Part shown: positions 682-62,498 of the stretch, one piece after another
Layout of the letters: every line of letters starts with the position of its first letter
How positions within the stretch are numbered: position 1 is the stretch's first letter
Virus record (IMG/VR): IMGVR_UViG_3300020576_001287
Coordinates: 1-64,000 of that record
Length of the DNA: 64,000 nt
Direction: 5' to 3' (one strand)
Origin: a virus
Lineage: Duplodnaviria; Caudoviricetes
Translations under genes and position numbers: made by a program
Notes under the pieces: model-generated
Seen by the model: only the letters and a program-made list of their open reading frames with translations
What the model was told of the DNA's origin: nothing
Databases searched by the model: none

Positions 682-1407
682 ATGGGACGAAGACTACAGA
701 GTATACTAGGCAACACATACGGGCAACTGACCGTAAAGAAACATTTAGGTAAAAAGGGAAAATACCTATGGCACTACTGGGAGTGTTTATGCACTTGCGG
801 GGGTATAAAAGAATACCCTACAAATTCTCTTATATCCGGTAACGTTCTTAGTTGTGGTTGTCTAGCTAAAAAAACTAGGCAGGAAAATTTTTCTAGGATA
901 AAAAAATTGAAAATAAAAAACTGGCTGGGTATAAGGCAAGGTAATCTACTGTGCTTGTCTTTCAGCGGTAAGCCATTTGCGAATAAGCTAAACTATTGGT
1001 TGTGTATATGTGATTGTGGTAAGCTACTTTATGTTAATAACTCTGCCCTACATGCTGGGCAGTATAGTTGTGGTTGTCAAACTAGACCGGCTTTAAAAAA
1101 TGCTATAGACATAAAGTACCCTGCTAATAGACCCATAGCTAAAAGCAAAACACGAGAGTACAATTCTTGGAAGTCTATGATTTACCGTTGTTACAGTACC
1201 ATATCACCTAGTTATCAATACTATGGAGCTAAAGGTGTAGTGGTTTGTGCCAGGTGGTTAGAAAGCTTTGACAACTTTTTAGAGGATATGGGTAACAGGC
1301 CAGATAACACAAGCATTGATAGGATAGACACAACCGGAGATTACACTCCTGATAACTGTAGGTGGGCCGATCCTAAAACACAAACTGCTAACCGAATACT
1401 AAAGTAG
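682..1407 (+). CDS. Free-standing HNH-type homing endonuclease with two N-terminal Cys-rich repeats
   Basis: Two repeats of G..YG.L.V...W.C.C.CG......L..G...SCGC; C-terminal YNSWKSMIYRC...YGAKGVVVCARW..FDNFLEDMG.RP...SIDRID..GDY.PDNCRWA. Confidence 0.8.
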   Translation: MGRRLQSILGNTYGQLTVKKHLGKKGKYLWHYWECLCTCGGIKEYPTNSLISGNVLSCGCLAKKTRQENFSRIKKLKIKNWLGIRQGNLLCLSFSGKPFANKLNYWLCICDCGKLLYVNNSALHAGQYSCGCQTRPALKNAIDIKYPANRPIAKSKTREYNSWKSMIYRCYSTISPSYQYYGAKGVVVCARWLESFDNFLEDMGNRPDNTSIDRIDTTGDYTPDNCRWADPKTQTANRILK

Positions 1408-1579
1408 CTTTAAGGACATGCGAGAATACATACCTAAAATTTTAGAAAACATTTCCGACCTATGCGTACAAAGTGTAATATGTTCGCTAAAGTAACTTTA
1501 GTGTACTTTTGTCCCCACGTACTCATTAGCATCCTACCGATCCAAGGTTAAAAAATATTTGAGTAGAAAATTTTAGAAA

Positions 1580-1867
1580 ATGAAAACACTTGACAAAAAG
1601 CCGATAACAGTTAGCTATGTGGAGTTTATTCCAGAGGTAGCAGATTTACAGGATAATACCATGTACATATCTGAGCAGTACAACTGTGCTATACATAAAT
1701 GCTTGTGTGGCTGTGGCAAACAGGTAGTTACTCCATTAGCTTCAAACATGTGGGCTGTAACCAAAAACCCTGATAACACTATAGACCTTAATCCATCTAT
1801 AGGAAACTACAACTTACGCTGCCGGTCTCATTATGTAATCAGAAAGAACGTTGCAATATTTATGTAG
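1580..1867 (+). CDS. Small Cys/His protein resembling DUF6527
   Basis: HKCLCGCG...VTPL...W....LNPSIGNY...CRSHYVIR motif pattern; family recognised from memory. Confidence 0.65.
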   Translation: MKTLDKKPITVSYVEFIPEVADLQDNTMYISEQYNCAIHKCLCGCGKQVVTPLASNMWAVTKNPDNTIDLNPSIGNYNLRCRSHYVIRKNVAIFM

Positions 1868-1882
1868 TGTCAAATTAATTAC

Positions 1883-1890
1883 TACCTTTG
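1883..1890 (+). promoter_or_regulatory. -7 box TACCTTTG not followed by an ORF
   Basis: Matches TAnnTTTG just after the 1580-1867 stop. Confidence 0.4.
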
Positions 1891-1919
1891 CTCTGCCTTA
1901 CCAAGCTGTATGCAAACTT

Positions 1920-1979
1920 AATCCCCTGCCTATGTCTGCCGTCTATTGCGGTAGCTTACTGGCTGGGGGTTTTGTTTTT
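1920..1979 (+). terminator. Long stem-loop followed by a T-tract (intrinsic terminator or 3' end of a small RNA)
   Basis: CTGCCG(1936-41)/CGGTAG(1949-54) inner stem; AATCCCC/GGGGGTT outer stem; then TTTTGTTTTT. Confidence 0.55.
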
Positions 1980-1991
1980 AGATATTTTATA

Positions 1992-1999
1992 TACCTTTG
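1992..1999 (+). promoter_or_regulatory. -7 box TACCTTTG
   Basis: Matches TAnnTTTG 16 nt upstream of the ATG at 2016. Confidence 0.5.
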
Positions 2000-2015
2000 C
2001 TTCAAACTAACTTTT

Positions 2016-2432
2016 ATGGCTAACGTAACAATGGAGCAAGAGGAAAAAAGGTTTAACAAGATATATAATTACATCGTAGGAGCTTCGGCTGTGCTATTGA
2101 TTGTAATAGTTTGTTTGGTATTTGTCCATATACCCAAGGATAACCAACAGTCAGCTAATATGGCTCTTGCTTTTTGTATGGGAGCTTTTACCGCTTTATC
2201 CGGTTACCTTATTGGGGCTTCTCCTGACAAGAAGCAGAATAATACTGGAATTACACAAACTCCGGTGCCCCAGGTAATAGCCGAGCGTAAGAACGATAAG
2301 GTATACCGGCTTATAGATGCTGCGACTACTTCCAGCCAGCTTACAGAGATAGGTACTACTTATGCTTTGGAAATGTCTGATGATCCGGCTTTAAAGGATT
2401 ATTGGGATAAGGCAATAACTAATATTAAATAG
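2016..2432 (+). CDS. Two-TM membrane protein (possibly holin-like or lysis-associated)
   Basis: Hydrophobic helices YIVGASAVLLIVIVCLVFV and MALAFCMGAFTALSGYLIG; start moved to ATG 2016 because 1851-2015 contains a terminator and a promoter box. Confidence 0.6.
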   Translation: MANVTMEQEEKRFNKIYNYIVGASAVLLIVIVCLVFVHIPKDNQQSANMALAFCMGAFTALSGYLIGASPDKKQNNTGITQTPVPQVIAERKNDKVYRLIDAATTSSQLTEIGTTYALEMSDDPALKDYWDKAITNIK

Positions 2433-2471
2433 TCAATTTATTTCCATACTTTTGTTCAAAAATATATAGTC

Positions 2472-3289: not shown

Positions 3290-3306
3290 GTTTAAAGTAA
3301 CTTTAG

Positions 3307-4030: not shown

Positions 4031-6718
4031 ATGGGAGTTATAGATACAGCACGTAGAGCATTAGAGATTGAAGAGATCAAGCGTATGCAAATGCGTGTTT
4101 GGCAGCTTGACCCTATGCTATGGTTAGAGGAGCGGTTTGGGGAAAGTGCCTCTGATTTCAGGTGGAGTGACCTGAAAGAATACGCTAACCACAAATGGGA
4201 TGGACATAAAGACCCATTGTATAATGCCTGGATGGATATTGCTACCGGAAACTGGGCAGGAATTGAAGCAGCTACAGGCTGTCATGCTAAGGGCACTCCT
4301 ATACTCATGCACGATGGGTCTGTAAAGAATGTGGAGGATATTGCAGTAGGTGATGAGCTTATGGGGGATGATTCTACAGAGCGTATTGTCTTATCTTTAG
4401 CACGAGGTAGGCAAACTATGGTACAAATAACTCCTGTTAAAGGGGAAAGTTTTGTAGTAAACCTAGATCACATATTATCTTTAAAAAAGACTAGCACCCC
4501 AGGAAAGTATAAAACTAAACCTGATATAGTAAATGTGAGTGTAAGGGAGTACTTAAAGTGGAACGACCACGATAAGCACTTATACAAGCTGTACAGGGCT
4601 GGGGTTGACTTTGATACTTCTAACGTAGCTATTTCTCCTTATATATTTGGGTTGTGGCTGGGGGATGGAAGTGTAGGGAGCATTGGACTAACTACTATAG
4701 ACGAAGAATTGCGGGTAGAGTGGACTAACTATTTTGAGGGCATCGGATATAATGTTGTTAAAGCTGATAGCAATGGTACAAGATGCCCTACTTACTTTGT
4801 AAATAAGGGCGTTAGAGGGGGTAAGGGCAATAACATACGTACTATATTTAACAACTCTGTGTGTAATGGCGAGAAGAGAATACCTCGTAATTACTTAACA
4901 GGTAACAGGGTACAGAGATTACAGCTACTTGCTGGGTTGATTGATTCTGATGGTAGTAATAACGACAGCTACGTTATTACCAGCAAGTATAAAAGATTGG
5001 CTGAAGATATTACTTTCTTATGTCGTTCATTAGGGTTTGCGGCCTATCTTAAACCAATAAAGTCTATATGCCAAGGCATGTCGGATTATAGGGAATACTG
5101 GTCTGTTAATATAAGCGGTGATTTACACTTAGTTCCGGTAAGGCTTGAAAGAAAGAAAATAGGGCTAAGAAAGCAGAAGAAAAGCGTATTGGTTACAGGG
5201 TTTAAAGTAACTTTATTAGATGCGGATGATTACTATGGGTTTGAGTTAGATAGAAACCACCTATATCTTATGGGGGATTTTACGGTTACTCACAATACCA
5301 GTAAAACCTACATGCTGGCAAGGGTGGTACTATGGTTCCTTGACACCCATCAGGATTCACTGGTAGTTACCTCAGCTCCAAAGCAGGCGCAGCTTACCTT
5401 GCACCTGTGGGCCGAGATTCAAAAGATATTTCACAAGTTCAAGAAAGTACGACCCAAAGCAGCTTTGTATAATCTTCGTCTTGTTGTGGAGGAGCGGGAT
5501 GAGAAAGAAGCAGTAGACTTGGAAAACGCTGACTTATCCAAGTCTTGGCAGGCTGTAGGTTTCGTAGCCGGTGTAGGATCGGATGAGCAGTCAGCAACCA
5601 AGGCACAAGGATTCCACCGTAAGGACATGCTATTAATCGTAGAGGAAACCCCAGGTATGCCCGATGCGATAATGACGGCCTTTATGAATACTTGTACCGG
5701 TGACAATAACATAATACTTGCCGTAGGTAACCCAGATAGTCAGCTAGACCCATTACATCTATTCTGTGAGCTTGGTAACGTTAGAAACTATAGGGTATCC
5801 GCTTTGGACTACCCTAATGTCGTTTTAGGCAAGGAGCTTATGCCTGGTGCCGTTACCGTCCAATCCATAGCCCGTAGGTTAGAGCAGTACAAGGACGTTA
5901 ACTCTCCAATGTACTTATCTCGTGTGCGTGGTATATCACCGGCACAGTCTTCGGACAGCTTAATAAAGCTGGATTGGATAAAGAATTGCAGGGATCATGA
6001 TTTACCATACGATTACTCATATCATGCTGTAGGTGTGGACGTTGCCAACAGCGTGGAGGGTGACAAAGCCGCCCTAGCCTGGATGCGAGGTAACCAATTG
6101 GACGAGATGCAGGATTTCTTCTGTAAAAACGCTACGCACTTGGCCTATAACCTATTTATGGATACTGCCACACTGGATGAGCATAACTATAACGACTACG
6201 GTACTTCCAAGTTGGAGGACTATGACGTAATGGATGGGCTTATAGGAGTGGATACCGTTGGGGTAGGTGTAGCAACATTTAATGCGTTCTTGGATCATGG
6301 TTACAATCCAGTATCCTTATGCGGTAAGCAGTGGGACGAGGTGATACCAATAGATGGGGCAGATTTCTTACCGGACGGTAAAAAGAATCCTAATGCTGGT
6401 AAGCCTCGTTACAAGTTTCAAAACCTACGGTCACATATGGCATGGGAGCTACGTACAGACTTACAGGACGGTAACATAAAAATAAACATAACTGACGAGG
6501 ACGAATTTAATCTTTTGTGTAAGGAGCTAATTGCAGTACGTTTTAAAGAAAGCGGTAACTACATAGTTGTAGAAAGCAAAGAAAACATAAAAAAACGTCT
6601 TGGGGGCAAGTCCCCAAATAAGTTCGATGCTTTGATGTACGCTAACTGGACACGTAAGGGGTATCGTATATTTAGTGGGCTTATGCCGATAATGGCAGGT
6701 AGTTCACAACTTCGTTAG
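4031..6718 (+). CDS. terL: Terminase large subunit (intein-containing)
   Basis: Walker A restored after splicing (AATG|TSKT); Walker B LLIVEE; coupling motif AVGNP; nuclease acidic motifs VGVDVA, GVDTVGVG, NKFDALM. Confidence 0.92.
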   Translation: MGVIDTARRALEIEEIKRMQMRVWQLDPMLWLEERFGESASDFRWSDLKEYANHKWDGHKDPLYNAWMDIATGNWAGIEAATGCHAKGTPILMHDGSVKNVEDIAVGDELMGDDSTERIVLSLARGRQTMVQITPVKGESFVVNLDHILSLKKTSTPGKYKTKPDIVNVSVREYLKWNDHDKHLYKLYRAGVDFDTSNVAISPYIFGLWLGDGSVGSIGLTTIDEELRVEWTNYFEGIGYNVVKADSNGTRCPTYFVNKGVRGGKGNNIRTIFNNSVCNGEKRIPRNYLTGNRVQRLQLLAGLIDSDGSNNDSYVITSKYKRLAEDITFLCRSLGFAAYLKPIKSICQGMSDYREYWSVNISGDLHLVPVRLERKKIGLRKQKKSVLVTGFKVTLLDADDYYGFELDRNHLYLMGDFTVTHNTSKTYMLARVVLWFLDTHQDSLVVTSAPKQAQLTLHLWAEIQKIFHKFKKVRPKAALYNLRLVVEERDEKEAVDLENADLSKSWQAVGFVAGVGSDEQSATKAQGFHRKDMLLIVEETPGMPDAIMTAFMNTCTGDNNIILAVGNPDSQLDPLHLFCELGNVRNYRVSALDYPNVVLGKELMPGAVTVQSIARRLEQYKDVNSPMYLSRVRGISPAQSSDSLIKLDWIKNCRDHDLPYDYSYHAVGVDVANSVEGDKAALAWMRGNQLDEMQDFFCKNATHLAYNLFMDTATLDEHNYNDYGTSKLEDYDVMDGLIGVDTVGVGVATFNAFLDHGYNPVSLCGKQWDEVIPIDGADFLPDGKKNPNAGKPRYKFQNLRSHMAWELRTDLQDGNIKINITDEDEFNLLCKELIAVRFKESGNYIVVESKENIKKRLGGKSPNKFDALMYANWTRKGYRIFSGLMPIMAGSSQLR
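4280..5296 (+). mobile_element. 339-aa intein with LAGLIDADG endonuclease inserted in the TerL P-loop
   Basis: Starts CHAKGTPILMHDG (VMA-like); LAGLIDADG blocks FGLWLGDGS and LLAGLIDSDGS; ends DDYYGFELD.NHLYL.GDFTVTHN; +1 residue Thr. Confidence 0.93.
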
Positions 6719-6752: not shown

Positions 6753-9218
6753 ATGGAATTTGATAGCAGTATAGCACAGATAAGAAATTTTGTAGAGGGA
6801 GCTAGGGCAGCTCGGCAAGTGGATGCAACTTCCCCAAAGGGGGCAGCGGCTATACCTACGCAATCAGGCAGGAGTTCCCAACCACAGAACTCTAGCCTAT
6901 TTGGTATACTTGTGGATGAGATGGCCCAGATAAATCCAGGCTTTGAGTTGGAACTACTAAAGGTGTGCCAACATCTTGCTACTTACAACGGTGACGTATC
7001 TTATGCAGTAGATAACGTATGTCAGCTAGGTAATACACCATACAAGGTTGTATTTGATAGCAGTACCCCAGATGATAGAAAGAAAAAGATGCTGGCGGTA
7101 ATAAGTGAGCAGGGGCAGTGGGTTTACCCTGGGGGTATGAGGATGCTTATTGGTGATATACTGGCTCAGATATATGTTACCGGTGCTGCCAGTGGTGAGA
7201 TAATACCGGATAAGACTTTAAAGTTTGTACAAAACGTAGCCCTAGTAAACCCCATAAGCGTACGATTCTTATACAACCCCAGCAACTATTCCTACGATCC
7301 ATACCAAGCTACCAATGGGTTTGCTGGTTCTGAGATAAGAAAAATGTCAGCTTCCAATGATTTCGGGCTGATAAAGCTAAACCCTTTGACCTACAAGTAT
7401 ATAGCGCATAGGCGATATAATGATAACCCATTTGCTATACCCCCTATACTAGCCTCCTTTGAGGGGATAGAGATAGAAAAGGATATGCTAAATAATATGC
7501 GGCATATAGTGCGTAAGATGGGGGTATTCGGGTTTTTATCTGTCATGGTGACGGCCCCAGTGCGGGAGCAGGGGGAGAAACCTAATGCGTACTTTGATCG
7601 CTGTAACGCTTATCTGTCCAAGATCAAACCAGAAATAGAAAAAGGCTACGCTTCAGGCGTGGCTTTAGGCTTTAAAGGGTTTCAGGAATGGAAAGTAGAG
7701 GGCGGTAATACCAATCTTGCCGGAGCTAAAGAGATATTCCAGCTTGTATCAGAGATAAAAATGGCTGGTTTGAAGCAAGACCCGCTGATGCTGGGTAGGA
7801 ACTTTAACGTAGCCGAGACTATGGCAAAAGTTATCATGTCAAAGCTCATCATGCAGACAGGAAATTTTCAGGCTGTTGCAGGATTATTTATAGCGGAGGT
7901 TATTAAAATGATGCTTGGGCTTAACGGCTACATGGAGAAAAACATAAAGGTAGAATTTGAGCCACCTATGATAGGTGATAGGCTACGTGATGCCCAGGCA
8001 AGAGAAAAAGAAATAGATAACTCACTTAAAGAGCGTGATGCAGGTTTGATCGGACAGCAGGAAGCGGCAAATAACCTGAAGCATGACAGACCGTATGCAC
8101 CTAAAGATGTGGATTATAGCGTAGCCAGGGTATCGGAGACAGCCAAGGCAGCTAAACCAACGGATGGTAAGCCTAAGCCGGTTAAGGATGCTGTAGATTC
8201 AGGGGCTACTAACTATTCTATGGGGTATCTACGCGATCAGCTAACCAAAGGTTACCCAGAATATAACTACGGTAGTTGTGATTGCACTGACATGGAATCC
8301 TTTGCTAAGGAGCCTGGGAATAAAAAATACCTATCGGTATTAAATCAGTACACCAATGATGTTGTAGTGACTTACTACGGGGCTTTAGATAAAGTAACTT
8401 TAAAAATAAAAGATAAGCTGGCATCACTATCACCAAACGCTACTCTTACTGAGGTTACAGATTTGGTATTTTACACCCTGTATAGTGAGTTTACTAATGC
8501 TTATGCCAGCACCCAAGAACAGAACATAAAGAAGTGGGTTAAAAATTCTTACGAGTCTTTTAGAGAGGACAGGGAAGTTTTTGGGGGTAATGATACTGTT
8601 ACGGATAAGACGGGTAAGACAGTTCCAGTACCTGCGGCTGTATTCAGCATGGATGACATAAAGGCTATGGATTACTTTAAAGAGTCCGACTTAGTGTACC
8701 TAACCAGGTTTATTACTGACTCAGACACAATAAAGACCCTGAATAACTACATAAAAGGTGCGTATTTAGCCAAGTTGGGCATAGCCGGTGATGTGAATAG
8801 TACTGAGTTCATTTCTGGCCTATTAGCGGTGCTGAGTGCCGAAGATTGGAAGCTACGCAGGGTTGTTGAGACTTCTGTTAATAAAATGCGTAATTTTGCT
8901 TACGTAACCTCCCTGGCAGAGGTTGGCGTATCGTTTTTTCAGGTTGTTGGGGTGAATGATTCCAAGCAGTGTAAGCATTGCAATAGTATACAAGGGTATA
9001 AATTCAGTGTAACTAGTGCTTATGATAAGGTGAAGAAAGCCTATGGGGGCACACCGGACACTATAGAACAGGATTCCCCGTTTATCACCAGCTTATTTAC
9101 TGGGGATACCGGAATACGATTACTACAGCAGCTAACAGGGGAGGAACTACAGGCACAAGGGTTGATAGGAGTACCACCATTCCACGCAAATTGCAGGGAT
9201 AAAATAGTAATGATATGA
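6753..9218 (+). CDS. Portal protein fused to a C-terminal MuF/SPP1 gp7-like minor head domain
   Basis: Follows TerL; portal-like N-terminal ~460 aa (NPF.IPPILAS..., EFEPP); Lys/Pro linker; C-terminal RRVVETSV.K.RN...GVND..QCKHC...PPFHANCRDKI (MuF signature). Confidence 0.8.
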   Translation: MEFDSSIAQIRNFVEGARAARQVDATSPKGAAAIPTQSGRSSQPQNSSLFGILVDEMAQINPGFELELLKVCQHLATYNGDVSYAVDNVCQLGNTPYKVVFDSSTPDDRKKKMLAVISEQGQWVYPGGMRMLIGDILAQIYVTGAASGEIIPDKTLKFVQNVALVNPISVRFLYNPSNYSYDPYQATNGFAGSEIRKMSASNDFGLIKLNPLTYKYIAHRRYNDNPFAIPPILASFEGIEIEKDMLNNMRHIVRKMGVFGFLSVMVTAPVREQGEKPNAYFDRCNAYLSKIKPEIEKGYASGVALGFKGFQEWKVEGGNTNLAGAKEIFQLVSEIKMAGLKQDPLMLGRNFNVAETMAKVIMSKLIMQTGNFQAVAGLFIAEVIKMMLGLNGYMEKNIKVEFEPPMIGDRLRDAQAREKEIDNSLKERDAGLIGQQEAANNLKHDRPYAPKDVDYSVARVSETAKAAKPTDGKPKPVKDAVDSGATNYSMGYLRDQLTKGYPEYNYGSCDCTDMESFAKEPGNKKYLSVLNQYTNDVVVTYYGALDKVTLKIKDKLASLSPNATLTEVTDLVFYTLYSEFTNAYASTQEQNIKKWVKNSYESFREDREVFGGNDTVTDKTGKTVPVPAAVFSMDDIKAMDYFKESDLVYLTRFITDSDTIKTLNNYIKGAYLAKLGIAGDVNSTEFISGLLAVLSAEDWKLRRVVETSVNKMRNFAYVTSLAEVGVSFFQVVGVNDSKQCKHCNSIQGYKFSVTSAYDKVKKAYGGTPDTIEQDSPFITSLFTGDTGIRLLQQLTGEELQAQGLIGVPPFHANCRDKIVMI

Positions 9219-9394: not shown

Positions 9395-10990
9395 ATGAAA
9401 AAGATATACCGAGAAGTTTTAAATTTCTCAAAATCGGAATTACTTGGCCTGCGTAGGGTGGGTATACAGACGGGAGCAATGTTACCAGTTTCAGCAGGTA
9501 CTGACGTATCTTCGTTTGGCTTTTTCGGGGATGGTAACAATATGAATACCTTTTACCCAGACATGGAGCCGGAGGATTGGGAAATAAAACCGGAGGATTT
9601 GGTAGATGTGCCGTTTCGTCTGTTATCAGCTACTATAGTGGGGGGAAACTCTTGGAAAGCTACTGACTTCAGGACGGCAGGGGTGCTTAAATCTTCTATG
9701 ATGATGCTGGATAAAAAGCCAGTATTTTTTGACCATACGCAAGATGTTCCAAACTGGTTAGGCATAACTACAGGGTTAACCTGGCAGGATACTAGTACCG
9801 CAGCAGATGGTACAATAATACCAGCCGGTATAAACGGCTTCCATCGTATAGATGCAAAGTCTAATCCTAAAATAGTTCGCGGGTTAAAATTAGGGGCTAT
9901 CGGTAGCAATAGCGTAACTGTTCAATTTGATTGGACTCCTAGCCATACCTACGATAGTGCTGATGAGTTCTACAACAAAATGGGTACAATAGACCCCAAA
10001 GATGGGGAAATGGTATGCCGCAAGGTTACTAAAATATTGGACTACCATGAGACTTCTTTAGTGTGGCTGGGGGCTGATCCATTTGCCAAGCAGATTGATA
10101 GCTCTGGAAACCTTGTTCATGTTGATAAGAACGCTGTACAGTACAGCAAAGAGAATCCATTTACTTTTGATAAAGCGGATGCGACTGAAAAAGCCACCTA
10201 CGATCATGAAAAAAAGTTTATTATAAACTTTGCCATTGATGAAAAAACTCTATCTTTGTCCAAGAATACTACTAAAGTTACTTTAACCAACAAAAAAAAT
10301 ATACAGATGAAAAAAGTACTCTTGGCATTTCTGGCAGCATTTGGCAGTAAATTAAGCTTAAACATAAATCTTTCTGATGACGCTACAGAGCTTACCCCAG
10401 ATCAGGAAGCCGCTCTGACTGCCGCTTTCGGTAAAATGTCTATAGCTGACCCAGCTAACGCTGAAAATGCTAAGATAGCAGCTTTTGCCAAAGGTTTAAA
10501 GTTGGTTAATGATAAAGGGGAGCTTGTTGATTTTGATATGGTTGGTGGGTCAGGTGCGGCTACCGTAGAATACCATATCATATCTACTGAAGAAAAGAAA
10601 AGGGTGTATGATGTTGCGGCTACTGTTACTGAAGAGTTCAAGGCTAATGCTACTGCCGGTGCCGCTTTTATGCGGGATAAGACAGCAGAATGTATACGTC
10701 TGTACAAATTACAGGTAGGTGACAACTATGATGAAGCCGTAGAAGCTCTTATATCCAATGCTAAGGATTCTAAGACATTGGACGGCCTGTTGAAGCAGTA
10801 TACTAAAGGATCACTGACACATTTCAGCGCACATTGCTCAAAATGTGATTCCTCTGATAACATAGAGATGCGTAGTTCCATACCTACAGGAACACCAAAT
10901 ACGCAGACTACCTCCGGCTTTAAGGCTCGTAACATAGCTGATATAATCAGTGACAGCAGCAAAACCCCAATGTTTATCGGGCGCAGTTAA
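9395..10990 (+). CDS. Prohead protease-scaffold protein
   Basis: Between portal and capsid; protease-like motifs FFDH, GAIGSNSV.V, ETSLVWLGAD; helical scaffold-like C-terminal half. Confidence 0.7.
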   Translation: MKKIYREVLNFSKSELLGLRRVGIQTGAMLPVSAGTDVSSFGFFGDGNNMNTFYPDMEPEDWEIKPEDLVDVPFRLLSATIVGGNSWKATDFRTAGVLKSSMMMLDKKPVFFDHTQDVPNWLGITTGLTWQDTSTAADGTIIPAGINGFHRIDAKSNPKIVRGLKLGAIGSNSVTVQFDWTPSHTYDSADEFYNKMGTIDPKDGEMVCRKVTKILDYHETSLVWLGADPFAKQIDSSGNLVHVDKNAVQYSKENPFTFDKADATEKATYDHEKKFIINFAIDEKTLSLSKNTTKVTLTNKKNIQMKKVLLAFLAAFGSKLSLNINLSDDATELTPDQEAALTAAFGKMSIADPANAENAKIAAFAKGLKLVNDKGELVDFDMVGGSGAATVEYHIISTEEKKRVYDVAATVTEEFKANATAGAAFMRDKTAECIRLYKLQVGDNYDEAVEALISNAKDSKTLDGLLKQYTKGSLTHFSAHCSKCDSSDNIEMRSSIPTGTPNTQTTSGFKARNIADIISDSSKTPMFIGRS

Positions 10991-11506: not shown

Positions 11507-11574
11507 TACCATAAAGTAACTTTAAGCGCAGTAAGCACAATCCCATTAAATTAAAAAACTTAAAATATACACTA

Positions 11575-18966: not shown

Positions 18967-18998
18967 TTCTTTGTAAAGTAACTTTAAAATAGCGCAAC

Positions 18999-20900: not shown

Positions 20901-20953
20901 TATAATCTGAGGGTGAAAAAAAAAATAAAGTAACTTTAAAAATATAAAAAGTC

Positions 20954-22404: not shown

Positions 22405-22586
22405 ATTCTATCTATTTTTACCTCGGCTACTGTGGGCTAAAAGGATTAGGTTTAGAGGAGTTTTACAGAATGTCACTGAACCGTATAAAGGGGTTTAAGC
22501 GAATGATGGATACGCAGAAAGAGTTTGAGAAGCAGGCCGCTAAACCGAAAGCAGGTAAGCGACCAAGTTTTACAGGCAGAAGATAA
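22377..22586 (+). CDS. Programmed -1 frameshift extension (gpGT-like) of the tail chaperone
   Basis: T TTT TTC heptamer at 22377-22383; the -1 frame reads FLPIGDNLDSIYFYLGYCGLKGLGLEEFYRMSLNRIKGFKRMMDTQKEFEKQAAKPKAGKRPSFTGRR to the stop at 22584-22586. Confidence 0.75.
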   Translation, partial: FFLPIGDNLDSIYFYLGYCGLKGLGLEEFYRMSLNRIKGFKRMMDTQKEFEKQAAKPKAGKRPSFTGRR

Positions 22587-22599
22587 AGTAACTTTAGTC

Positions 22600-32368: not shown

Positions 32369-32381
32369 AGTAACTTTAATT

Positions 32382-34690: not shown

Positions 34691-34789
34691 GTACAGGTAA
34701 AACAACATACAGCAATGGGCATACGTAATCTATAAATATAGGTGTTTAAAAACGACTGCTATTAAAGTTACTTTTAACATCTGTATTAC

Positions 34790-48152: not shown

Positions 48153-48410
48153 ATGATACCAGTAGACTTCCCAGGCTGTAACAAGGTATTTACTAGGCCT
48201 GCTAATATGACAGATGAACAATGCGGTAGCTTATATTGCATGGTAGCGGTAACTGAGGATGGAATACCGCTAACCCGCCAAGCTTGGCAACCAAACAAAG
48301 AGGACATAGAGGCTATAAATGCTGGCAGGCCAATATTCATAGACTTGCTCACACACCATATACCCCCTGTTGCCGTATTTACTTTTGATGACAAAGGAGA
48401 GATAAACTAA
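48153..48410 (+). CDS. Conserved-type phage hypothetical protein
   Basis: PVDFP..N....P...C..L...W.P..ED...IN.G.PI.......PPV. Confidence 0.6.
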   Translation: MIPVDFPGCNKVFTRPANMTDEQCGSLYCMVAVTEDGIPLTRQAWQPNKEDIEAINAGRPIFIDLLTHHIPPVAVFTFDDKGEIN

Positions 48411-48420
48411 AGTAGCTTTA

Positions 48421-49753: not shown

Positions 49754-49855
49754 AGTAACTTTAAAAATAGTTTGGGAATTATTTTGTGGTCCCAATTTTA
49801 ATTCTGAATTTTACAGTCTAACAAAATTTCTTTTTAACCAATTCAATCAAAATTT

Positions 49856-51036: not shown

Positions 51037-51055
51037 AATGTACACAACATACGGT

Positions 51056-52993: not shown

Positions 52994-53079
52994 TGAAACT
53001 TAGAGGCGTATTACCCATAGCACACATTTTATCCTACTTAAAATAAAGTAACTTTACAAAACAAATAAAAACAACAGCA

Positions 53080-53808: not shown

Positions 53809-54426
53809 ATGATACCAATAAACAGAGTTGATTTCTTTCTTAATCTGACTACCAACGGGCTTAAAGCCACTAAGTTTGATGGTTATGATGCTATACTGAA
53901 TGAGTGGGAGGATATGAAGCTTACCGATCTACGCTGGTTGGCTTACATCTTTGCTACTGTGTACCACGAGACAGACAAGACCATGATGCCTATAGAGGAG
54001 CATGGTAAAGGGGCCGGTAAGAAGTATGGCAAGCGCATTAAGTTCAATGGTAAGCCTTATACAGGGGAGCATTTGTACTACGGCAGGGGGCACACTCAAA
54101 ACACCTGGTATGAGATATACGAGATGCTTACATCAAGGGCTAAAGCAGCCGGTAAGAATTGGGACTTTATAAACCACCCTGAGTTACTGCTAACTATGGA
54201 ACCTTCAATATGGGCTACGTTCTTGGCAATGACTAAAGGGCTATACACTGGTGTAGGGTTAAGCCGGTATTTCAATGCTGATAAGGAAGATTGGGTAAAT
54301 GCTCGTAAGATTATAAACGGGCTGGATAAAGCGGAGCATATAGCAGAGCTTGCTAAGGAATTCTACCTATGTCTGACTGTAGCCCCTAAAGAGAAACCCA
54401 CCACTGCTAATAACCCAACAGCATAA
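53809..54426 (+). CDS. GH19 chitinase-like endolysin
   Basis: AYIFAT.YHET, PIEE, YYGRG..Q.TW, NARKIING. Confidence 0.85.
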   Translation: MIPINRVDFFLNLTTNGLKATKFDGYDAILNEWEDMKLTDLRWLAYIFATVYHETDKTMMPIEEHGKGAGKKYGKRIKFNGKPYTGEHLYYGRGHTQNTWYEIYEMLTSRAKAAGKNWDFINHPELLLTMEPSIWATFLAMTKGLYTGVGLSRYFNADKEDWVNARKIINGLDKAEHIAELAKEFYLCLTVAPKEKPTTANNPTA

Positions 54427-54449
54427 AGTAACTTTAAAACATAATTATC

Positions 54450-55884: not shown

Positions 55885-56154
55885 ATGCGGTGGAGACAAA
55901 CTAAAGTTACTTTATTCACTGGGGTAGAAACACCTGTAAAGGTGGATACTCTGTTAGAGGTAGCTATAGATTGTAAAGACATAAGTGACCAGGTACTACG
56001 CTCTGATTCCGTTAAAGAATTGAAAGCCGGTACTATGGTAACTGTTGAATCCATTACCGATGCCTGCTTAAAGGACAAAACAATACGATGCTACCCAATA
56101 GGCAGCAGAATACTACACTACATCAAACCTGAATTTCTAACCATACCAAGTTAA
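55885..56154 (+). CDS. Hypothetical protein
   Basis: Tiles in the + strand operon. Confidence 0.5.
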   Translation: MRWRQTKVTLFTGVETPVKVDTLLEVAIDCKDISDQVLRSDSVKELKAGTMVTVESITDACLKDKTIRCYPIGSRILHYIKPEFLTIPS

Positions 56155-56790: not shown

Positions 56791-58237
56791 GTTATTCCCA
56801 TTACCTCCAATACGAGAGCAGGTAGAACGCCTTAAACGTCCGGCAGGTGTACCCAATGTGGCAAGCTTTAATGCAAAGCAGCATGAGGTAATGGCAGGGC
56901 TACTTGCATGGTACAATAAACCTGGTGGGGGTATTGCCCTGTTAGAGGGCATGGCAGGTACTGGTAAGACACATATCAGCTCTAGGTTTGTGGAGCAGAT
57001 ACTACACATGAACTGGAATCATAAGATAGCCTATACCGCTACTACCAATAAGGCAGTTAAGGTATCCTACACTATGGCAGAGTTTTACCACACCAACCTT
57101 GTATACTCTACTTTACATTCATTGCTTGCTCTGAAAGAATCCATACGCTATGATGGTAGCATAGACTTCATACCGGACAAATGGGTACAGCCTGGTATAG
57201 TGGATTGTGCGTTAGTTATTGTAGAAGAATCCAGTATGTTACAGGATAAGCTATTTGGCTACCTGCAACCGTATATTGTAATGGGGTGTAAGGTACTGTT
57301 TGTGGGTGATGGGTGTCAGGCATTACCTGTTAAGAGCAATACACGAGCTATACCGTTTAACACCATCAAGCAGAGGCAGTATAACATAGAAGTGTTTACC
57401 CTGACAGAGATAGTCCGGCAAGCAGCCGGTAATCCCATTATCCAATTTACTACAGCTATCCGTAATGATCTGAATAGGTCTAGGTCTTTCAAGTCACTTT
57501 ACAAGGAGGATATGGTTAATGAGGGGCATGGTGTTTACTTCATACGCAGGAACCGGCAAGAGGAGCGAGAGTACTTTGATGCTTTGCTCAGGCATGTATT
57601 TACCAGCCCTAACTTTGTAGAATCTGCTGATTTTGCCAAGGTGCTGGGGTATACCAATAATACTGTAAACTTTATCAATGCTGCGGTGCGTAGAATGATT
57701 TACGGTAAGCGTAAGCTACGCAGGGTAGAGCTGGGGGAGAAGCTTATAGCAGCAGAGCCTGTATTTGACTATGAGGGCAGGGTAATGATCTCCAATAGTG
57801 AGGAGCTACAGGTAGTAGAGTTTGAAAAGAAGTATCAAAATATAAACGGGGGCCAGCACACGCTAACTTACTATGATACATTAGTTACATACTTTGACAT
57901 GGTAGGTAAGCCCGTAGAGCAGCATATAAACATACTCAGTGACCTTGGGCAGATAGAAGCAGATAAGATACTACAACAAATGGCAGCAGTAGCTAAGATG
58001 CACACCCCAGGTTCTATACCTGCTACAAATGCTTGGAAAGAGTTTTACGCTTTCAAACGCAAGTTTGCCAGTATTAACTACTCCTACGCTATGACTTCTC
58101 ACAAAGCACAGGGAAGCACTTACGATAACGCTATAGTGATGGAGTGTGATATATCCACCATACGCATGCCTAAAGAACGAAACCAATTATTTTACACCGC
58201 AGCCAGCCGACCAAGGCACAGACTGTTTATACTTTAA
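56783..58237 (+). CDS. Superfamily 1B helicase (T4 Dda/RecD-like)
   Basis: LEGMAGTGKT, IVEESSM, VGD..QALPV, LTEIVRQ, YAMTSHKAQGSTYD, YTAASR. Confidence 0.9.
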   Translation: MRELFPLPPIREQVERLKRPAGVPNVASFNAKQHEVMAGLLAWYNKPGGGIALLEGMAGTGKTHISSRFVEQILHMNWNHKIAYTATTNKAVKVSYTMAEFYHTNLVYSTLHSLLALKESIRYDGSIDFIPDKWVQPGIVDCALVIVEESSMLQDKLFGYLQPYIVMGCKVLFVGDGCQALPVKSNTRAIPFNTIKQRQYNIEVFTLTEIVRQAAGNPIIQFTTAIRNDLNRSRSFKSLYKEDMVNEGHGVYFIRRNRQEEREYFDALLRHVFTSPNFVESADFAKVLGYTNNTVNFINAAVRRMIYGKRKLRRVELGEKLIAAEPVFDYEGRVMISNSEELQVVEFEKKYQNINGGQHTLTYYDTLVTYFDMVGKPVEQHINILSDLGQIEADKILQQMAAVAKMHTPGSIPATNAWKEFYAFKRKFASINYSYAMTSHKAQGSTYDNAIVMECDISTIRMPKERNQLFYTAASRPRHRLFIL

Positions 58238-58242
58238 AACTT

Positions 58243-58464
58243 ATGGGGTTAAGTACAACAACGCAAATTTTTATACTAGCCTGCGTACTAGCAGTAGTAG
58301 TTAAAGTCCTAGAAAATTATTTTGACAACACATATGTAGATGAGGAGGTAGAGCGTTATACCAAGTTTACTGGCTGTAATGATGACGTAGAGTTATACAC
58401 TGTGATCCGGTACAAGCGCACCTACAAGAACGGCACCATTACTTACATTTCTAAACGTGATTAA
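58243..58464 (+). CDS. Small protein with N-terminal TM segment
   Basis: IFILACVLAVVVKVL. Confidence 0.5.
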   Translation: MGLSTTTQIFILACVLAVVVKVLENYFDNTYVDEEVERYTKFTGCNDDVELYTVIRYKRTYKNGTITYISKRD

Positions 58465-58476
58465 AGCTACTTTAAC

Positions 58477-59533: not shown

Positions 59534-59851
59534 ATGACTACAGAAGCACTTGAACAGGCTAAAAAATTAGTTGAACAGGCTAAAAAATTAGAGGCGGCTA
59601 TAGCTAATTACACTAGGCACCTGGAAGAGGTATCAGGAGACACTACGGAGGCCATAGCTATAGAGGCTAGTTCAGGGGGTGCTAACCCTGCATCTATATC
59701 ATTTGTAGTGGCTAATGAAGAGAGCACAGACCTGCATTTAGATTTATTTGCAGAGTTCAACATACCTACTCCTAAGATGGTAATTGACCAATATATAGCG
59801 GCTGTGCAATCTAAGATTACACAACTTAAACAGGATTTTGAAGCCCTTTAA
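59534..59851 (+). CDS. Coiled-coil hypothetical protein, paralog of 55624-55881
   Basis: Ends PTPKMVIDQYIAAVQSKITQLKQDFEAL. Confidence 0.6.
   Translation: MTTEALEQAKKLVEQAKKLEAAIANYTRHLEEVSGDTTEAIAIEASSGGANPASISFVVANEESTDLHLDLFAEFNIPTPKMVIDQYIAAVQSKITQLKQDFEAL
59550..59591 (+). repeat. Perfect 21-bp tandem duplication (one heptad)
   Basis: TTGAACAGGCTAAAAAATTAG x2. Confidence 0.9.
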
Positions 59852-59860
59852 AGTTACTTT

Positions 59861-60574
59861 ATGTCAGACCAAGAATTACTACACTACCTTAAAGCCGACA
59901 CGGATAAACCAATTAAGCATAGTTGGAAGTGTATAGGGTTAAACTCAAATGGTATCAAAGTGTATGAGTGTAGAAACTGTAACCTCAAAAAGGGTAATAT
60001 GCAGGTACCACCCACTATGCGATTATTTACACGGTACATTAAACCAGACGGTACTACACAAGTTAGAGCCGGAAAATGTGAATCAAGTTTAAAACCAGAT
60101 ATAAATATGGAAAATCAACCAGTGCGTAAAGCACAAACGACAATCGGATGTATACCAATGCACGACAGGGTGTACATCAAAGAGGCAGAACATGAAACCC
60201 AAACCAAGGGGGGTATAATATTGCCGGACAACTTGGACAGAGAGCCTAAGACCTGGGGTACAATCGTAGCAATGGGGCCAGGGTACTCTGATAAACCCAT
60301 GATAATAGAGCTAGGTGATGTAGTGCGCTACAGTAAACACGCTGGTACTGAAGATGAGATAGACGGTGTTAAGTACAAGGTAATCCGTGAATCTGACATA
60401 TTCAGCATTAAGGTACCGGTACCAACCGCTGCCGAGACTACAAAATTTCCCGTAGTTGACACTACGCCTGTAAGAGGTAAGGTAGACATTGGGGAGTTAG
60501 AGGATAAGGAATACGAAGAAACCCCACAACAGTATCAGGCACGTTTAGCCGCTAAAGCAACTGCTAAAAAATAA
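59861..60574 (+). CDS. groES: GroES/Cpn10 co-chaperonin domain with N-terminal Cys/His domain and acidic C-terminal extension
   Basis: IPMHDRVYIK..E.ETQTKGGIILPD...GTIVAMGPG...GDVVRYSKHAGTE.EIDG.KY.VIRESDI. Confidence 0.88.
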   Translation: MSDQELLHYLKADTDKPIKHSWKCIGLNSNGIKVYECRNCNLKKGNMQVPPTMRLFTRYIKPDGTTQVRAGKCESSLKPDINMENQPVRKAQTTIGCIPMHDRVYIKEAEHETQTKGGIILPDNLDREPKTWGTIVAMGPGYSDKPMIIELGDVVRYSKHAGTEDEIDGVKYKVIRESDIFSIKVPVPTAAETTKFPVVDTTPVRGKVDIGELEDKEYEETPQQYQARLAAKATAKK

Positions 60575-60579
60575 TCGCA

Positions 60580-60900
60580 ATGGAAACACTACCAATCATA
60601 ATTATAGTAGCACTTATCGCCTGTTTATTAGGGGTAGGTGCTACTGTAGTGTTTATACACTACACAAGTAAAATGGCTAAGTTGCAGGGGCTTACGAATG
60701 AGTTAACTGATAACCTAGGCAAAGTGCATCTACGGCTAACTGGCGTGGAAAAAGGTTTATACAACACCTCTAAAGCATTAGCTACAGACACAGACAATAA
60801 GATAACTGCTGTAGACACCAAGATTAACGAGCTAGCTACCACCACTGTAGAAGCCCTTAACGCCATTCAGCAAACCTTAGAAACTAAAAACAATGGCTAA
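60580..60900 (+). CDS. Bitopic membrane protein with coiled coil
   Basis: LPIIIIVALIACLLGVGATVVFI. Confidence 0.55.
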   Translation: METLPIIIIVALIACLLGVGATVVFIHYTSKMAKLQGLTNELTDNLGKVHLRLTGVEKGLYNTSKALATDTDNKITAVDTKINELATTTVEALNAIQQTLETKNNG

Positions 60901-61177
60901 GAAACCTGAGTTGAAAGTATGGGTAACCACCAATATTGCTAATACTACAGGTATTATAGTAGCTGCCTACAGTAAGTATAGTGCTGTGCAAATTATACAC
61001 TTTGGTACAGGTAAGAAAATTACAAAGAAAGAATTTGAATCCTTTTATAACTTTGTATCCCCTGACAATTTAACGAGAGTTAAGGTTACTGAAAATATAC
61101 TTTTAGATCGTCCGGCTATATACCTATACTCCCTAGGTAAGGTATGTTGTACTTGGTTAGGCACAAAAGAAGACTAA
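60893..61177 (+). CDS. Hypothetical protein
   Basis: Overlaps both neighbours. Confidence 0.5.
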   Translation: MAKKPELKVWVTTNIANTTGIIVAAYSKYSAVQIIHFGTGKKITKKEFESFYNFVSPDNLTRVKVTENILLDRPAIYLYSLGKVCCTWLGTKED

Positions 61178-61725
61178 TGGTTAGATGTATATATTGTTCA
61201 AGGCCGATACAGAAAGCTCGTGATGGCTATTTTCATTGCGTTGATAAGGTAAGCTGTGATCGGGTAGCAGCTACTAAGTCCCTGCCCCCTAAGAAGGTAG
61301 TCATATTCTTTGATGCTGCTTGTCAGGGGGCTAACAAGGCTGAGGGGCAGCAGATGGGTATAGGGGTACACACTACCATAGATGGGGTAGATGCCCCTGA
61401 ATATTCCGGCATAAAGGCTATAGGACATGGTACCGTAAACGATGGAGAGTGGACAGCTTGCACACATGCTTTTGATATTGCCCGTAGGGTGTACAGCGAC
61501 AACAGCGGCAGGGTATTTATAACTATATTCAGCGACTCCCAAGTAGTTGTTAAAGGCTTTACTGGGATCAATAAAACAGGGGCCAAGTTCTTGCAGTACG
61601 AGAAATTTTGTAAAAGCATAGCACGTAAGCTGGGGGCTAAGTTTACGGGCTTATACTGGATAAGTCGTGATAGGAATACCAAAGCTGACATATTAAGTAA
61701 GGAAGCATTAAAACTGATAAAATGA
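61177..61725 (+). CDS. RNase HI-like protein with N-terminal Cys4 motif
   Basis: IFFDAAC.G, N.GEW.A, IFSDSQVVV, WISRDRN.KAD; N-terminus CIYC...C....C. Confidence 0.8.
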   Translation: MVRCIYCSRPIQKARDGYFHCVDKVSCDRVAATKSLPPKKVVIFFDAACQGANKAEGQQMGIGVHTTIDGVDAPEYSGIKAIGHGTVNDGEWTACTHAFDIARRVYSDNSGRVFITIFSDSQVVVKGFTGINKTGAKFLQYEKFCKSIARKLGAKFTGLYWISRDRNTKADILSKEALKLIK

Positions 61726-61796
61726 TAACCGTAGCAATCATACTATACCTCATATACGGAGTACTCCCATTGTTAACAAACAAAACCAATAAATAA
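61722..61796 (+). CDS. 24-aa hydrophobic micropeptide (not in ORF track)
   Basis: MITVAIILYLIYGVLPLLTNKTNK; ATGA overlap upstream, TAATG overlap downstream. Confidence 0.5.
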   Translation: MITVAIILYLIYGVLPLLTNKTNK

Positions 61797-62143
61797 TGTT
61801 CAAGATAGACACATGCGATTTAGATGCGCTAAAGCAAGATACTCCGGTTATGACAATAGGAGATCATATAAAAGGTACTATGTTTACTGCTATAGACATA
61901 CAGGAGCATAACCTACAACGGTTAATGGCTGGGGTATCCATGTTTGTATTCAAGAAAGCTAAGGGGGAATTGCGCAAAGCAATAGGAACACTTAACCCAG
62001 CTTTTATACCCAAGGAGCGTAGCACAGAGCCTGCAAAGAAGCAGCATAAGCCAGCTCCAAATACGCAGACTTTCTTTGATCTACAGGCTAATGAGTTCCG
62101 TAGCTACAACATGGATAACATCATTGCAATAATAGAATTTTAA
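61796..62143 (+). CDS. WYL_2/SH3-like domain protein
   Basis: FVFKK.KGELRKAIGTL...TFFDL.ANEFRSY. Confidence 0.7.
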   Translation: MFKIDTCDLDALKQDTPVMTIGDHIKGTMFTAIDIQEHNLQRLMAGVSMFVFKKAKGELRKAIGTLNPAFIPKERSTEPAKKQHKPAPNTQTFFDLQANEFRSYNMDNIIAIIEF

Positions 62144-62153
62144 AGTACGTGGT

Positions 62154-62204
62154 AAGGGGTAGTGAGTAAAGGCTACATAGACCGTTCAAATCGGCTGCCT
62201 CTTC
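62154..62204 (+). ncRNA. tRNA-like mini-element (T-arm + acceptor-like stem, no anticodon arm)
   Basis: AAGGGGT/GCCTCTT 7-bp stem; CCG-TTCAAAT-CGG T-loop; alternative GTAGT/GCTAC hairpin. Confidence 0.35.
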
Positions 62205-62224
62205 GGAACTAAATAAAATTACCT

Positions 62225-62476
62225 ATGGCACTTAACGCACATGCTCCTGAAAACAGAATAATACAGCAGATAGTAGATGACTACTATGCTCGTGACCCTA
62301 GGGCTATTAATGGTATCATACAACCTAGCTACGGGCCTATGCCTAAGTATGTTATAGATACCTTAGAAGAAATGGGGTTTATTGTAGATTACGAGGCTTT
62401 TAGTTCCGGCATTTACCAGTATCACGTAGTAACCCCAGAGGATGCTGAAATATACAGACAATCACACCTAAAGTAA
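62225..62476 (+). CDS. Hypothetical protein
   Basis: A-rich leader; tiles. Confidence 0.55.
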   Translation: MALNAHAPENRIIQQIVDDYYARDPRAINGIIQPSYGPMPKYVIDTLEEMGFIVDYEAFSSGIYQYHVVTPEDAEIYRQSHLK

Positions 62477-62498
62477 CTTTAAAAACCAATATACAGTT

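Follow-up and report, generated by a model that had tools for sequence, protein, structure and literature searches.

A dispersed 13-bp palindrome and an orphan ParB in a tailed phage: a candidate KorB-type network of operator and loading sites

The IMG/VR virus record IMGVR_UViG_3300020576_001287 (Duplodnaviria; Caudoviricetes) is a phage sequence of 80,488 bp, and its first 64 kb (positions 1 to 64,000, hereafter the window) carry a 13-bp palindrome, TAAAGTWACTTTA, repeated throughout the genome, together with parB, a gene for an orphan protein of the ParB/KorB type. The DNA has a GC content of 41%, the genes lie nearly all on the + strand, and the non-coding share of the genome is 6.4%. Head and tail genes of the window encode TerS, an intein-bearing TerL, an HK97-type capsid protein, a sheath-like protein and a T4 gp19-like tube protein; its replication genes encode a primase, helicases and a family-A DNA polymerase split by an intein and an endonuclease; and further genes encode NinB, the SbcD and SbcC homologues that flank ParB, a PD-(D/E)XK nuclease, an endolysin and Cpn10. 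Shine-Dalgarno sequences are absent at start codons, and TAnnTTTG boxes, which match the Bacteroidota -7 promoter element, are recurrent; the promoters referred to below are unmapped and are inferred from this consensus. Syntenic relatives have been binned with metagenome-assembled genomes (MAGs) of Flavobacterium, Flavobacteriales and Bacteroidota, and the host phylum is therefore likely to be Bacteroidota. No tRNA genes were found, the tyrosine integrase family (PF00589) had no match in the genome, and a six-frame search of the genome returned no XRE-type (HTH_3) immunity repressor outside parB, in which the only HTH_3-like segment lies. A nucleotide search of GenBank phages gave no relative, nor did single-protein searches of IMG/VR with ParB and the capsid protein, and the IMG/VR relatives compared here were recovered only through an alignment-based search.

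The exact palindrome occurs 21 times in the window, and dinucleotide shuffles never gave more than 1 copy (mean 0.01). The full genome contains 27. An earlier note on this DNA had listed at least 21 copies against a chance expectation of about 0.01, and the recount bears this out in number and position. With the centre base left free, the genome holds 15 more copies with one mismatch, where 0.48 sites would be expected in all, exact ones included, and exact and weaker sites together form an array of about one site per 2 kb. Of 18 possible half-site variants, only three are represented among these 15 copies, TAAAGC (six copies), TCAAGT (five) and AAAAGT (four), and all three occur on the left and right half alike. 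The recurrent variant, TAAAGTAGCTTTA or its complement, accounts for the five window copies with half-site TAAAGC listed in Table 1, the same five that the earlier note had given; the other one-mismatch copies, which it had put at four, do exist, and number seven in the window when the centre base is free. In agreement with the earlier count, 12 of the exact window copies are intergenic or at gene junctions and nine lie in genes, always in the K-V-T-L frame, which with a centre A is the sole + strand frame without a stop codon. Across the genome, in spite of its small non-coding share, 15 of the 27 exact copies touch gene boundaries or non-coding DNA.

The spectrum of variants indicates that the motif is a dyad-symmetric protein site acting at the level of DNA. 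Its half-site tolerance profile is as would be expected for a symmetric dimer with one half-site per subunit, and the mirror symmetry of the variants shows that it is double-stranded DNA that a dimer reads. In the relative represented by a 79-kb contig (L004/L008) the centre base can be any of the four. G001, which among the motif-rich relatives is the most distant, has a longer palindrome of 15-17 bp that keeps the symmetry: of its 36 copies, 33 have T at -1 and 34 have A at +1. Selection acts on this DNA word inside genes too: the genome has 11 exact copies within genes, whereas 300 within-gene shuffles of synonymous codons, the codon-preserving comparison that the earlier note had proposed, averaged 1.21 and never exceeded 4. 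In the proteome the K-V-T-L peptide was observed 12 times, where composition predicts 0.75, and 11 of the 12 are encoded by the exact motif; a putative regulatory DNA word thus shapes protein sequences, as K-V-T-L is enriched 16-fold through the motif alone. Few in-gene positions are common to close relatives (in the TerL intein, a 531-aa gene and an 89-aa gene) and most differ, while motif density among the relatives stays at one copy per 1.7-3 kb. Positions within genes therefore turn over as density is kept, suggesting that the number or coverage of sites is maintained and not particular positions.

Comparison with relatives supports a link between the motif and ParB. All seven ParB-bearing phages, this one included, over-represent the motif or its core AAGTNACTT at GC contents of 34-59%, and in all of them parB is positioned between sbcD and sbcC. 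The 79-kb contig has 17 copies in 42 kb, L005/L009 nine in 18 kb, L007/L010 five copies of TAAAGTNASTTTA in 35 kb, all intergenic, and G001 36 in 63 kb. G026:C100 carries four exact and 10 one-mismatch copies in 70 kb, with half-site variants as in the present genome, and G027:C575 (59% GC) carries 18 copies of AAGTSACTT, mostly as CAAGTSACTTG, where 0.48 are expected. For this GC-rich relative AAGTSACTT was used in place of the palindromes CGTGGTNACCACG and CACCACNGTGGTG, which were dropped as they stood at control level in the MAG and occurred only twice on the phage contig. Among the ParB-less relatives, 19 whole IMG/VR records, MT121964 and G022 have no exact copy; in the 19 records, G003 among them, the 9-bp core appears 0-3 times, no more often than the reversed control pattern, and G022 has one one-mismatch copy in 54 kb. 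The earlier note had named, as an outcome that would refute it, a motif just as common in relatives without ParB; the motif is instead at chance level or absent in all 22 relatives shown to lack the gene, and the co-occurrence of motif and parB that the note had looked to among relatives holds in seven of seven ParB-bearing phages. On a capsid tree the joint ParB/motif state needs at least three changes, and one subclade (support 100/99) places G026:C100, with ParB and motif, beside G003 and G022, which have neither, so that the co-occurrence does not stem from a single ancestral event. The capsid tree joins the fragment G021 to this phage by a long branch. The motif is missing from the 41 kb of G021, but the contig stops before the sbcD-parB-sbcC region, and the fragment counts neither for nor against the association.

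The ParB protein consists of an N-terminal ParB/Srx-like domain (GFNVR, DGHRR and GENKK...LE boxes, the first two conserved among homologues), a helix-turn-helix (HTH) part, helices at residues 256-303, and a Lys-rich and then acidic tail. Pfam HTH_ParB (PF17762) matches residues 120-200 with 31.5 bits (cut-off 22.6), PHROG 1033 ('ParB-like partition protein') matches at 2e-29, and the best PDB matches by sequence are KorB (8qa8, 1.6e-4) and Spo0J (1vz0, 4e-4). An AlphaFold2 (AF2) model has a predicted local distance difference test (pLDDT) score of 81-95 over residues 10-220, and its top Foldseek matches are the KorB-KorA-DNA complex (8qa9), Spo0J, ParB with cytidine diphosphate (ParB-CDP) and Noc. 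In particular, the ParB/Srx fold is matched by ParB-CDP and KorB-CTPgammaS structures, the HTH part by KorB-O/DNA (1r71) and ParB/parS (6s6h), and the arginine-rich GxxRxxA box is present as DGHRRFTAA, which is invariant in the homologue alignment and aligns to GARRYRG of KorB and GERRYRA of Spo0J. The C-terminal part, where this family would have its dimerisation domain, consists of helices 256-303 at moderate confidence and the disordered tail, and has no family or fold match.

The gene order sbcD-parB-sbcC recurs in L008, L009, L010, L011, G001, G026:C100 and G027:C575, and the interval between sbcD and sbcC (window 48758-52993) is a variable slot. It holds parB in the seven phages, a MazG-like (PRA-PH) gene and a 113-aa open reading frame (ORF) in G002 (L097:12563-13965), a 165-aa ORF without ParB match in G003, and nothing in MT121964 and G022, where G022 has a 360-nt gap with no ORF of at least 60 aa. 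The 312-aa slot gene of G002 was considered as a diverged ParB and rejected, being MazG-like, with an hhalign probability of 0.2% against ParB. Since the slot holds a MazG-like gene in G002, the adjacency of parB to the Rad50/Mre11 pair may reflect an insertion hot spot and not a shared function.

Three classes of placement can be distinguished, namely core-promoter, junction and intragenic (Table 1). In three of the 27 exact copies (1488, 3293 and genome 69484) a -7 box begins at most 3 nt downstream of the motif or overlaps its end, where the frequency of -7 boxes in the genome predicts 0.1 such copies, and the same placement is seen in three of eight copies in L004 and three of six in L005. 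At two further copies (18974 and genome 70432) the -7 box comes first and the motif follows after 2-7 nt. A promoter spacer filled by the motif recurs in L004 and L005 before terS and portal-region genes; at the sheath-like gene the motif lies 7 nt past the -7 box here and 8 nt past it in L004, and the upstream copy at this gene is kept in four phages, including L007, which has very few copies. Such placement is operator-like, and the copy at 18974, for instance, may be an operator at the transcription start. The earlier note had promoter boxes abutting three sites, which is right for 3293 and 18974, whereas at 46275 the box is 33 nt away. Junction copies supply, with their TAA, the stop codon of the upstream gene, and the start codon of the next gene comes 0-3 nt later; the note had counted seven cases with this stop codon, and six of them stand (32366, 48408, 49751, 54424, 58462 and 59849), the seventh, 22584, having no upstream ORF of at least 50 aa that ends at the motif. 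The distance from motif to start codon ranges from 0 to 93 nt in this genome, and in G001 exactly NN-ATG follows the motif in 16 of 36 copies. A word of 13-17 bp presumably costs least at a gene junction when 94% of the genome is coding, and this register also leaves an A at -3. A copy just upstream of parB, over the sbcD stop codon, is found in four of the seven phages (this phage, L008, L009 and L010); in the window it ends 92 nt before the parB start codon, as the earlier note had it.

Table 1. Copies of the palindrome in the window, and parB with other genes. Coordinates are window positions unless marked as genome; equivalents are copies at corresponding places in relatives.
Feature	Position	Strand	Context	Equivalents
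parB	49856..50974	+	orphan ParB/KorB-type, 372 aa; Pfam, PHROG, PDB and fold matches	
Exact motif	1488..1500		intergenic; -7 box TACTTTTG begins 3 nt downstream	
Exact motif	3293..3305		in terS promoter spacer, right after terminator hairpin; layout TTTTG-tt-(motif)-g-TAAATTTG-tgct-ATG	same layout: L004 1554, L005 1537
Exact motif	5203..5215		within TerL intein (K-V-T-L)	same position L004 (aa 393)
Exact motif	8390..8402		within 821-aa gene 6753-9218	
Exact motif	10273..10285		within 531-aa gene 9395-10990	same residue position L005
Exact motif	11512..11524		intergenic, 50 nt before major capsid gene	syntenic: L004 9947, L005 9505
Exact motif	15183..15195		within 334-aa gene 15037-16041	
Exact motif	18974..18986		7 nt after -7 box TATTTTTG, 12 nt before ATG of sheath-like 633-aa gene	syntenic: L004 18219, L007 14371, G001r 17727 and 17752
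Exact motif	20926..20938		intergenic, upstream of tail-tube (T4 gp19-like) gene	syntenic: G001r 19373
Exact motif	22584..22596		3 nt before likely ATG 22600 of 895-aa tail gene	syntenic: G001r 20943
Exact motif	32366..32378		junction; TAA = upstream stop; ATG 3 nt on	
Exact motif	39188..39200		within helicase gene 38934-40421	
Exact motif	42055..42067		within N-terminal PolA gene 41444-43570	
Exact motif	44081..44093		within endonuclease ORF 43536-44531 between split PolA halves	
Exact motif	49751..49763		over sbcD stop, before parB; local 17-bp palindrome TTTAAAGTAACTTTAAA; candidate autoregulatory site	L008 9898, L009 3343 (variant), L010 9251
Exact motif	51715..51727		within sbcC	
Exact motif	53044..53056		intergenic, downstream of sbcC	
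Exact motif	54424..54436		junction; TAA = stop of endolysin-like gene	
Exact motif	55902..55914		within 89-aa gene 55885-56154	same position L008 16695
Exact motif	59849..59861		junction; TAA = stop; last A = A of next ATG	
Exact motif	62469..62481		intergenic, 17 nt before ATG 62499	
Variant TAAAGC	1400..1412		overlaps stop codon of HNH gene	
Variant TAAAGC	16042..16054		at overlap of genes 15037-16041 and 16034-17632	
Variant TAAAGC (left side)	23958..23970		in gene	
Variant AAAAGT	25845..25857		in gene	
Variant TCAAGT	28866..28878		in gene	
Variant AAAAGT (right side)	34763..34775		intergenic, 14 nt before ATG 34790	
Variant TCAAGT	36420..36432		in gene	
Variant TCAAGT (right side)	46275..46287		intergenic, upstream of -7 box TACTTTTG of SSB-like gene	
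Variant TAAAGC	48408..48420		junction; TAA = stop, ATG directly after	
Variant AAAAGT	49615..49627		within sbcD	
Variant TCAAGT, centre C	57489..57501		within Pif1-like helicase gene	
Variant TAAAGC	58462..58474		junction; TAA = stop, ATG 2 nt on	
sbcD	48758..49753	+	Mre11-like phosphoesterase, upstream of parB; Pfam Metallophos	
sbcC	51038..52993	+	Rad50-like ATPase, downstream of parB; Pfam SMC_N, AAA_23, SbcC_Walker_B	
Serine recombinase	genome 72122-72778 (L101:10122-10778)		218 aa, outside window; Resolvase N-terminal domain	

We propose that TAAAGT-N-ACTTTA is probably the site of a dimer of the phage's own orphan ParB. The earlier note had favoured ParB as the most plausible phage-encoded dimer, and the mirror-symmetric variants, the KorB/Spo0J-type sequence and fold, the OB-like geometry and operator-like placement of the sites, the subtraction of gene content given below and the co-occurrence across relatives all point the same way. 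For the biology downstream of the array our confidence is lower, and we infer physical binding by ParB, dependence on cytidine triphosphate (CTP), repression as the outcome, and the purpose. In the proposed scheme, a ParB dimer, with its KorB/Spo0J-type ParB-CTPase fold and HTH, would bind and load at each palindrome, the duplex target being TAAAGTAACTTTA. At promoter-embedded copies, which lie either between the -33 TTTG and the -7 TAnnTTTG (terS) or on the transcription start (sheath gene), bound ParB would exclude RNA polymerase, giving these copies an operator role; terS, the sheath-like gene, several early cassettes and probably parB itself would be the targets of repression, the last through autoregulation from the copy upstream of the gene. 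In-gene and junction copies would serve as loading sites, from which ParB would move out along the DNA, sliding or spreading as a clamp that depends on CTP, in the manner of KorB at distal OB sites, and with one site per 2 kb the whole genome would lie within its reach. The array may serve to time the expression of genes, or to silence them while the phage persists as a carrier or episome, and VirB-like anti-silencing, or the positioning or compacting of phage DNA, may equally work through the same sites. The resolvase (serine recombinase) of Table 1 together with ParB could fit an episomal or carrier state, and nothing else in the genome points to lysogeny; as a separate observation, a homologue of this recombinase, 52% identical, adjoins terS in the fragment G021.

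ParB-parS complexes load SMC condensin onto bacterial chromosomes. By analogy, the array might work together with the two genes that parB splits, for the Mre11-like SbcD and the Rad50/SMC-like SbcC, in that ParB at about 40 sites would load or restrain the Rad50-like ATPase on phage DNA. The phage genome would thereby be labelled as 'self' and spared by the nuclease, or its recombination-dependent replication and compaction would be organised. A ParB-Rad50 partnership is not known so far, and we regard it as decidedly unlikely.

Several points weigh against ParB as the reader of the array or against the functions proposed for it. This ParB has the GENKK box, but the catalytic E-N pair of the C-motif (ENLQR box) varies among its closest homologues and is not a constant of the clade, which makes CTP hydrolysis uncertain. 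The ParA-interaction motif of ParB proteins, N-terminal (L/F/I)G(K/R)G(L/F/I) (PMC12704722), is absent from the N-terminus of this protein, and a ParA-type ATPase (PF13614) had no match in the whole genome, where 14 of 14 control genomes gave matches; given both absences, ParB is an orphan and not one half of a partition pair. No KorA/TrbA-like clamp-locking candidate came up, no search aimed at one having been made. The co-occurrence amounts to about three evolutionary transitions and not 29 independent points; many of the ParB-less genomes are near-identical to one another, and two of the seven ParB-bearing phages, L005/L009 and L007/L010, are same-sample contig pairs not proven to be the same phages. 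Intragenic copies dominate in G026:C100 and G027:C575, and promoter repression therefore cannot be the sole or even the ancestral role, while G001 and G026:C100 have no copy directly upstream of parB. Finally, copy spacing is even in the present genome (CV, the coefficient of variation, 0.49; P<0.001) but not significantly so in G001 (CV 0.87), and even spacing as a general property was dropped as an argument for that reason.

Among alternatives to ParB as reader, the one that survives best is that another dimeric protein, either a Bacteroidota host factor or an unrecognised phage protein, reads the palindrome, and that ParB shares the clade by descent only. The small number of transitions leaves room for it, as do about 60 small ORFs of the 53-80 kb region without detectable homologue in any relative, among which a diverged regulator could hide. 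Of the genes of this phage that have a G001 homologue and are missing from the motif-less G002 and MT121964, there are only two, parB and a 153-aa ORF (12909-13370), which therefore shows the same presence/absence pattern as ParB in the genomes compared; this ORF, however, comes immediately behind the capsid gene in the head module, shows neither a DNA-binding signature nor a match to any family, and in an atlas search met only unnamed viral clusters with lead-level scores. The small HTH protein at 55281 (ORF 55269-55505, 78 aa), which the earlier note had named as the protein to set beside ParB, does not track the motif, because it is conserved in motif-less phages too, and the six-frame search leaves no HTH_3-like region other than that of parB. 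A host factor is further disfavoured by the ParB-less relatives, which have the same Bacteroidota-type promoters (e.g., TATATTTG in MT121964) yet no motif. Against any other reader it counts that the core persists over GC contents of 34% to 59% in ParB-bearing genomes only. We consider a different reader unlikely, without regarding the chance as negligible.

A role in RNA or translation is far less probable still. The motif might be a cassette that joins a stop codon (UAA) to an A-rich, Shine-Dalgarno-free start context, or a site for mRNA processing or a translational repressor, and some features would suit it: six window copies supply the upstream stop codon, the NN-ATG register of G001 puts A at -3 and at -12 to -14, the genes share one strand, and, read on the coding strand, 20 of the 27 copies here and 27 of 36 in G001 have a central A. 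An RNA element would nevertheless have no reason for the mirror symmetry of the variants and of the G001 extension. The best RNA stem that the motif allows has five A-U-rich pairs round a triloop, and T6 and A8 remain complementary though they cannot pair in a hairpin. In addition, the 11 in-gene copies of this genome and most of those in G026:C100 and G027:C575 lie deep in genes, in several frames and on both strands (the G027:C575 core among them), and the wide range of distances to the start codon in this genome does not suit a translation signal either. Equally improbable is a cleavage, nicking, packaging, modification or recombination signal (a homing or HNH target, a methyltransferase site, or a boundary for module shuffling), for which there speak several HNH, LAGLIDADG and GIY-YIG endonuclease genes in the phage and its relatives and copies at the edges of mobile genes, such as the variant at 1400 that ends an HNH gene absent from the relative X3, and against which it counts that cutting at a symmetric 13-bp site present 27-40 times per genome would break up the DNA of the phage itself, that the site is longer than usual methyltransferase targets, that contigs from public runs (contigs only) read through the sites, and that endonuclease genes vary among motif-bearing relatives where motif and ParB are constant.

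Other repeated palindromes were encountered in the genomes compared. G026:C100, a phage contig of a Flavobacterium MAG, has a second one, TTTGTTTATAAACAAA, in 7-11 copies (L111-L114; L103:6356, 14625, 15842), with half-sites similar to the KorA operator OA and to parS (TGTTTA...TAAACA); it lies in a repeated promoter cassette, and TATCTTTA comes after it. G027:C575 has nine copies of another, ATATAGNNNCTATAT, within AAATATATAGGGTCTATATA (L107-L110); this element is rich in AT where the genome is rich in GC, and it is probably a cassette with a promoter or operator role. In Agrobacterium phage 7-7-1 (L102, NC_019519.1), which is unrelated and encodes a ParB, a 15-bp odd palindrome, TACAAATNATTTGTA, occurs in eight copies between 25865 and 39122, downstream of parB (23023-23790), and each copy lies exactly between the TTGAC -35 and TAtaag -10 elements of early promoters.

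Some further features of the phage may be recorded. At several promoters (terS and portal-region neighbours) the -7 box TAnnTTTG ends exactly 4 nt before the ATG (window 3306-3321; L004:7585-7600 and 7798-7813; L005:7137-7152), which suggests that these mRNAs are leaderless or nearly so. X3, a ~93%-identical relative from an aquatic metagenome run, lacks the HNH endonuclease gene (window 586-1413) and about 1 kb of the TerL intein (4279-5302), namely the homing-endonuclease part with the motif copy at 5203, and both pieces appear to have been recently mobile. The family-A DNA polymerase (window 41444-45499) consists of two genes, the second of which opens with an intein-like C-terminal piece, and a Vsr/MTES_1575-like endonuclease ORF sits between the halves. 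About 70-90 nt of the record start recur near its end with few mismatches (window 1-100 against genome 80397-80488; CAGTATTATTAAAACAT...TATTACTAC), which would fit an imperfect terminal repeat or an iteron region, or a record whose cut fell within a repeat.

Among known systems, the array departs from the canonical ParABS centromere, a 16-bp even palindrome (TGTTNCACGTGAAACA) served by ParA, in being an odd 13-mer with other half-sites and in a genome without ParA. Cluster A mycobacteriophages such as L5 carry about 25-35 copies of a 13-bp stoperator genome-wide (PMC9283540, PMC6550527), and these sites are asymmetric, oriented with transcription and read by a monomeric immunity repressor (PMC9283540). 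The two arrays are alike in their enrichment in short intergenic gaps and gene junctions, and for stoperators one phage regulator silences the genome. However, the analogy that the earlier note drew with L5 fits poorly, since the present site and its variants are mirror-symmetric, the candidate reader is a ParB, and the genome has neither the integrase nor the repressor sought by the searches described above. Noc, which tethers DNA to the membrane through an N-terminal amphipathic helix, is served by about 70 NBS palindromes on the Bacillus subtilis chromosome, the NBS being an even 14-bp palindrome. Like the present protein, Noc is an orphan ParB paralogue without ParA with dispersed palindromes that lie mostly in genes, and it is among the fold matches; the density of sites here is roughly 20 times higher.

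The closest known system is KorB-OB of the IncP-1 plasmid RK2, which has 12 OB operators (TTTAGCSGCTAAA) (PMC11790492). OB, TTTAGCGGCTAAA, is likewise a 13-bp odd palindrome, and KorB spreads from distal OB sites on RK2 (PMC11790492). The likeness extends to a ParB-CTPase fold with HTH, KorB being the best PDB match by both sequence and fold, to a centre base that is free or degenerate, and to many dispersed copies, one of them near the regulator's own gene and others both at promoters (1488, 3293, 18974, genome 69484 and 70432) and away from them, as in the nine in-gene window copies. The two systems differ in that the replicon here is a tailed phage with a lytic-type gene set and Bacteroidota-type hosts whereas RK2 is a plasmid, in that the phage has no ParA/IncC and no identified KorA/TrbA-like partner, and in that its 27-42 sites per 80 kb are three- to four-fold denser than 12 per 60 kb, with the half-site TAAAGT, many sites written into coding sequence, and parB between sbcD and sbcC. 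Orphan ParB-like genes are common in phages, with roles largely uncharacterised according to a 2025 survey (PMC12704722), and the literature searched describes no phage ParB with a genome-wide site array. The comparison of sequences, folds and site placement supports a KorB-type network of operators and loading sites in a phage lineage, and the case offers a concrete, testable protein-site pair whose comparative support is unusually clean, with 27-42 sites, a defined core, weaker half-site variants, ParB-less control phages and promoter-embedded copies. If ParB binds these sites and spreads from them, a virus would be using a CTP-switch clamp to control or organise its whole genome, and the long-range silencing known from KorB would extend from plasmids to tailed phages of Bacteroidota.

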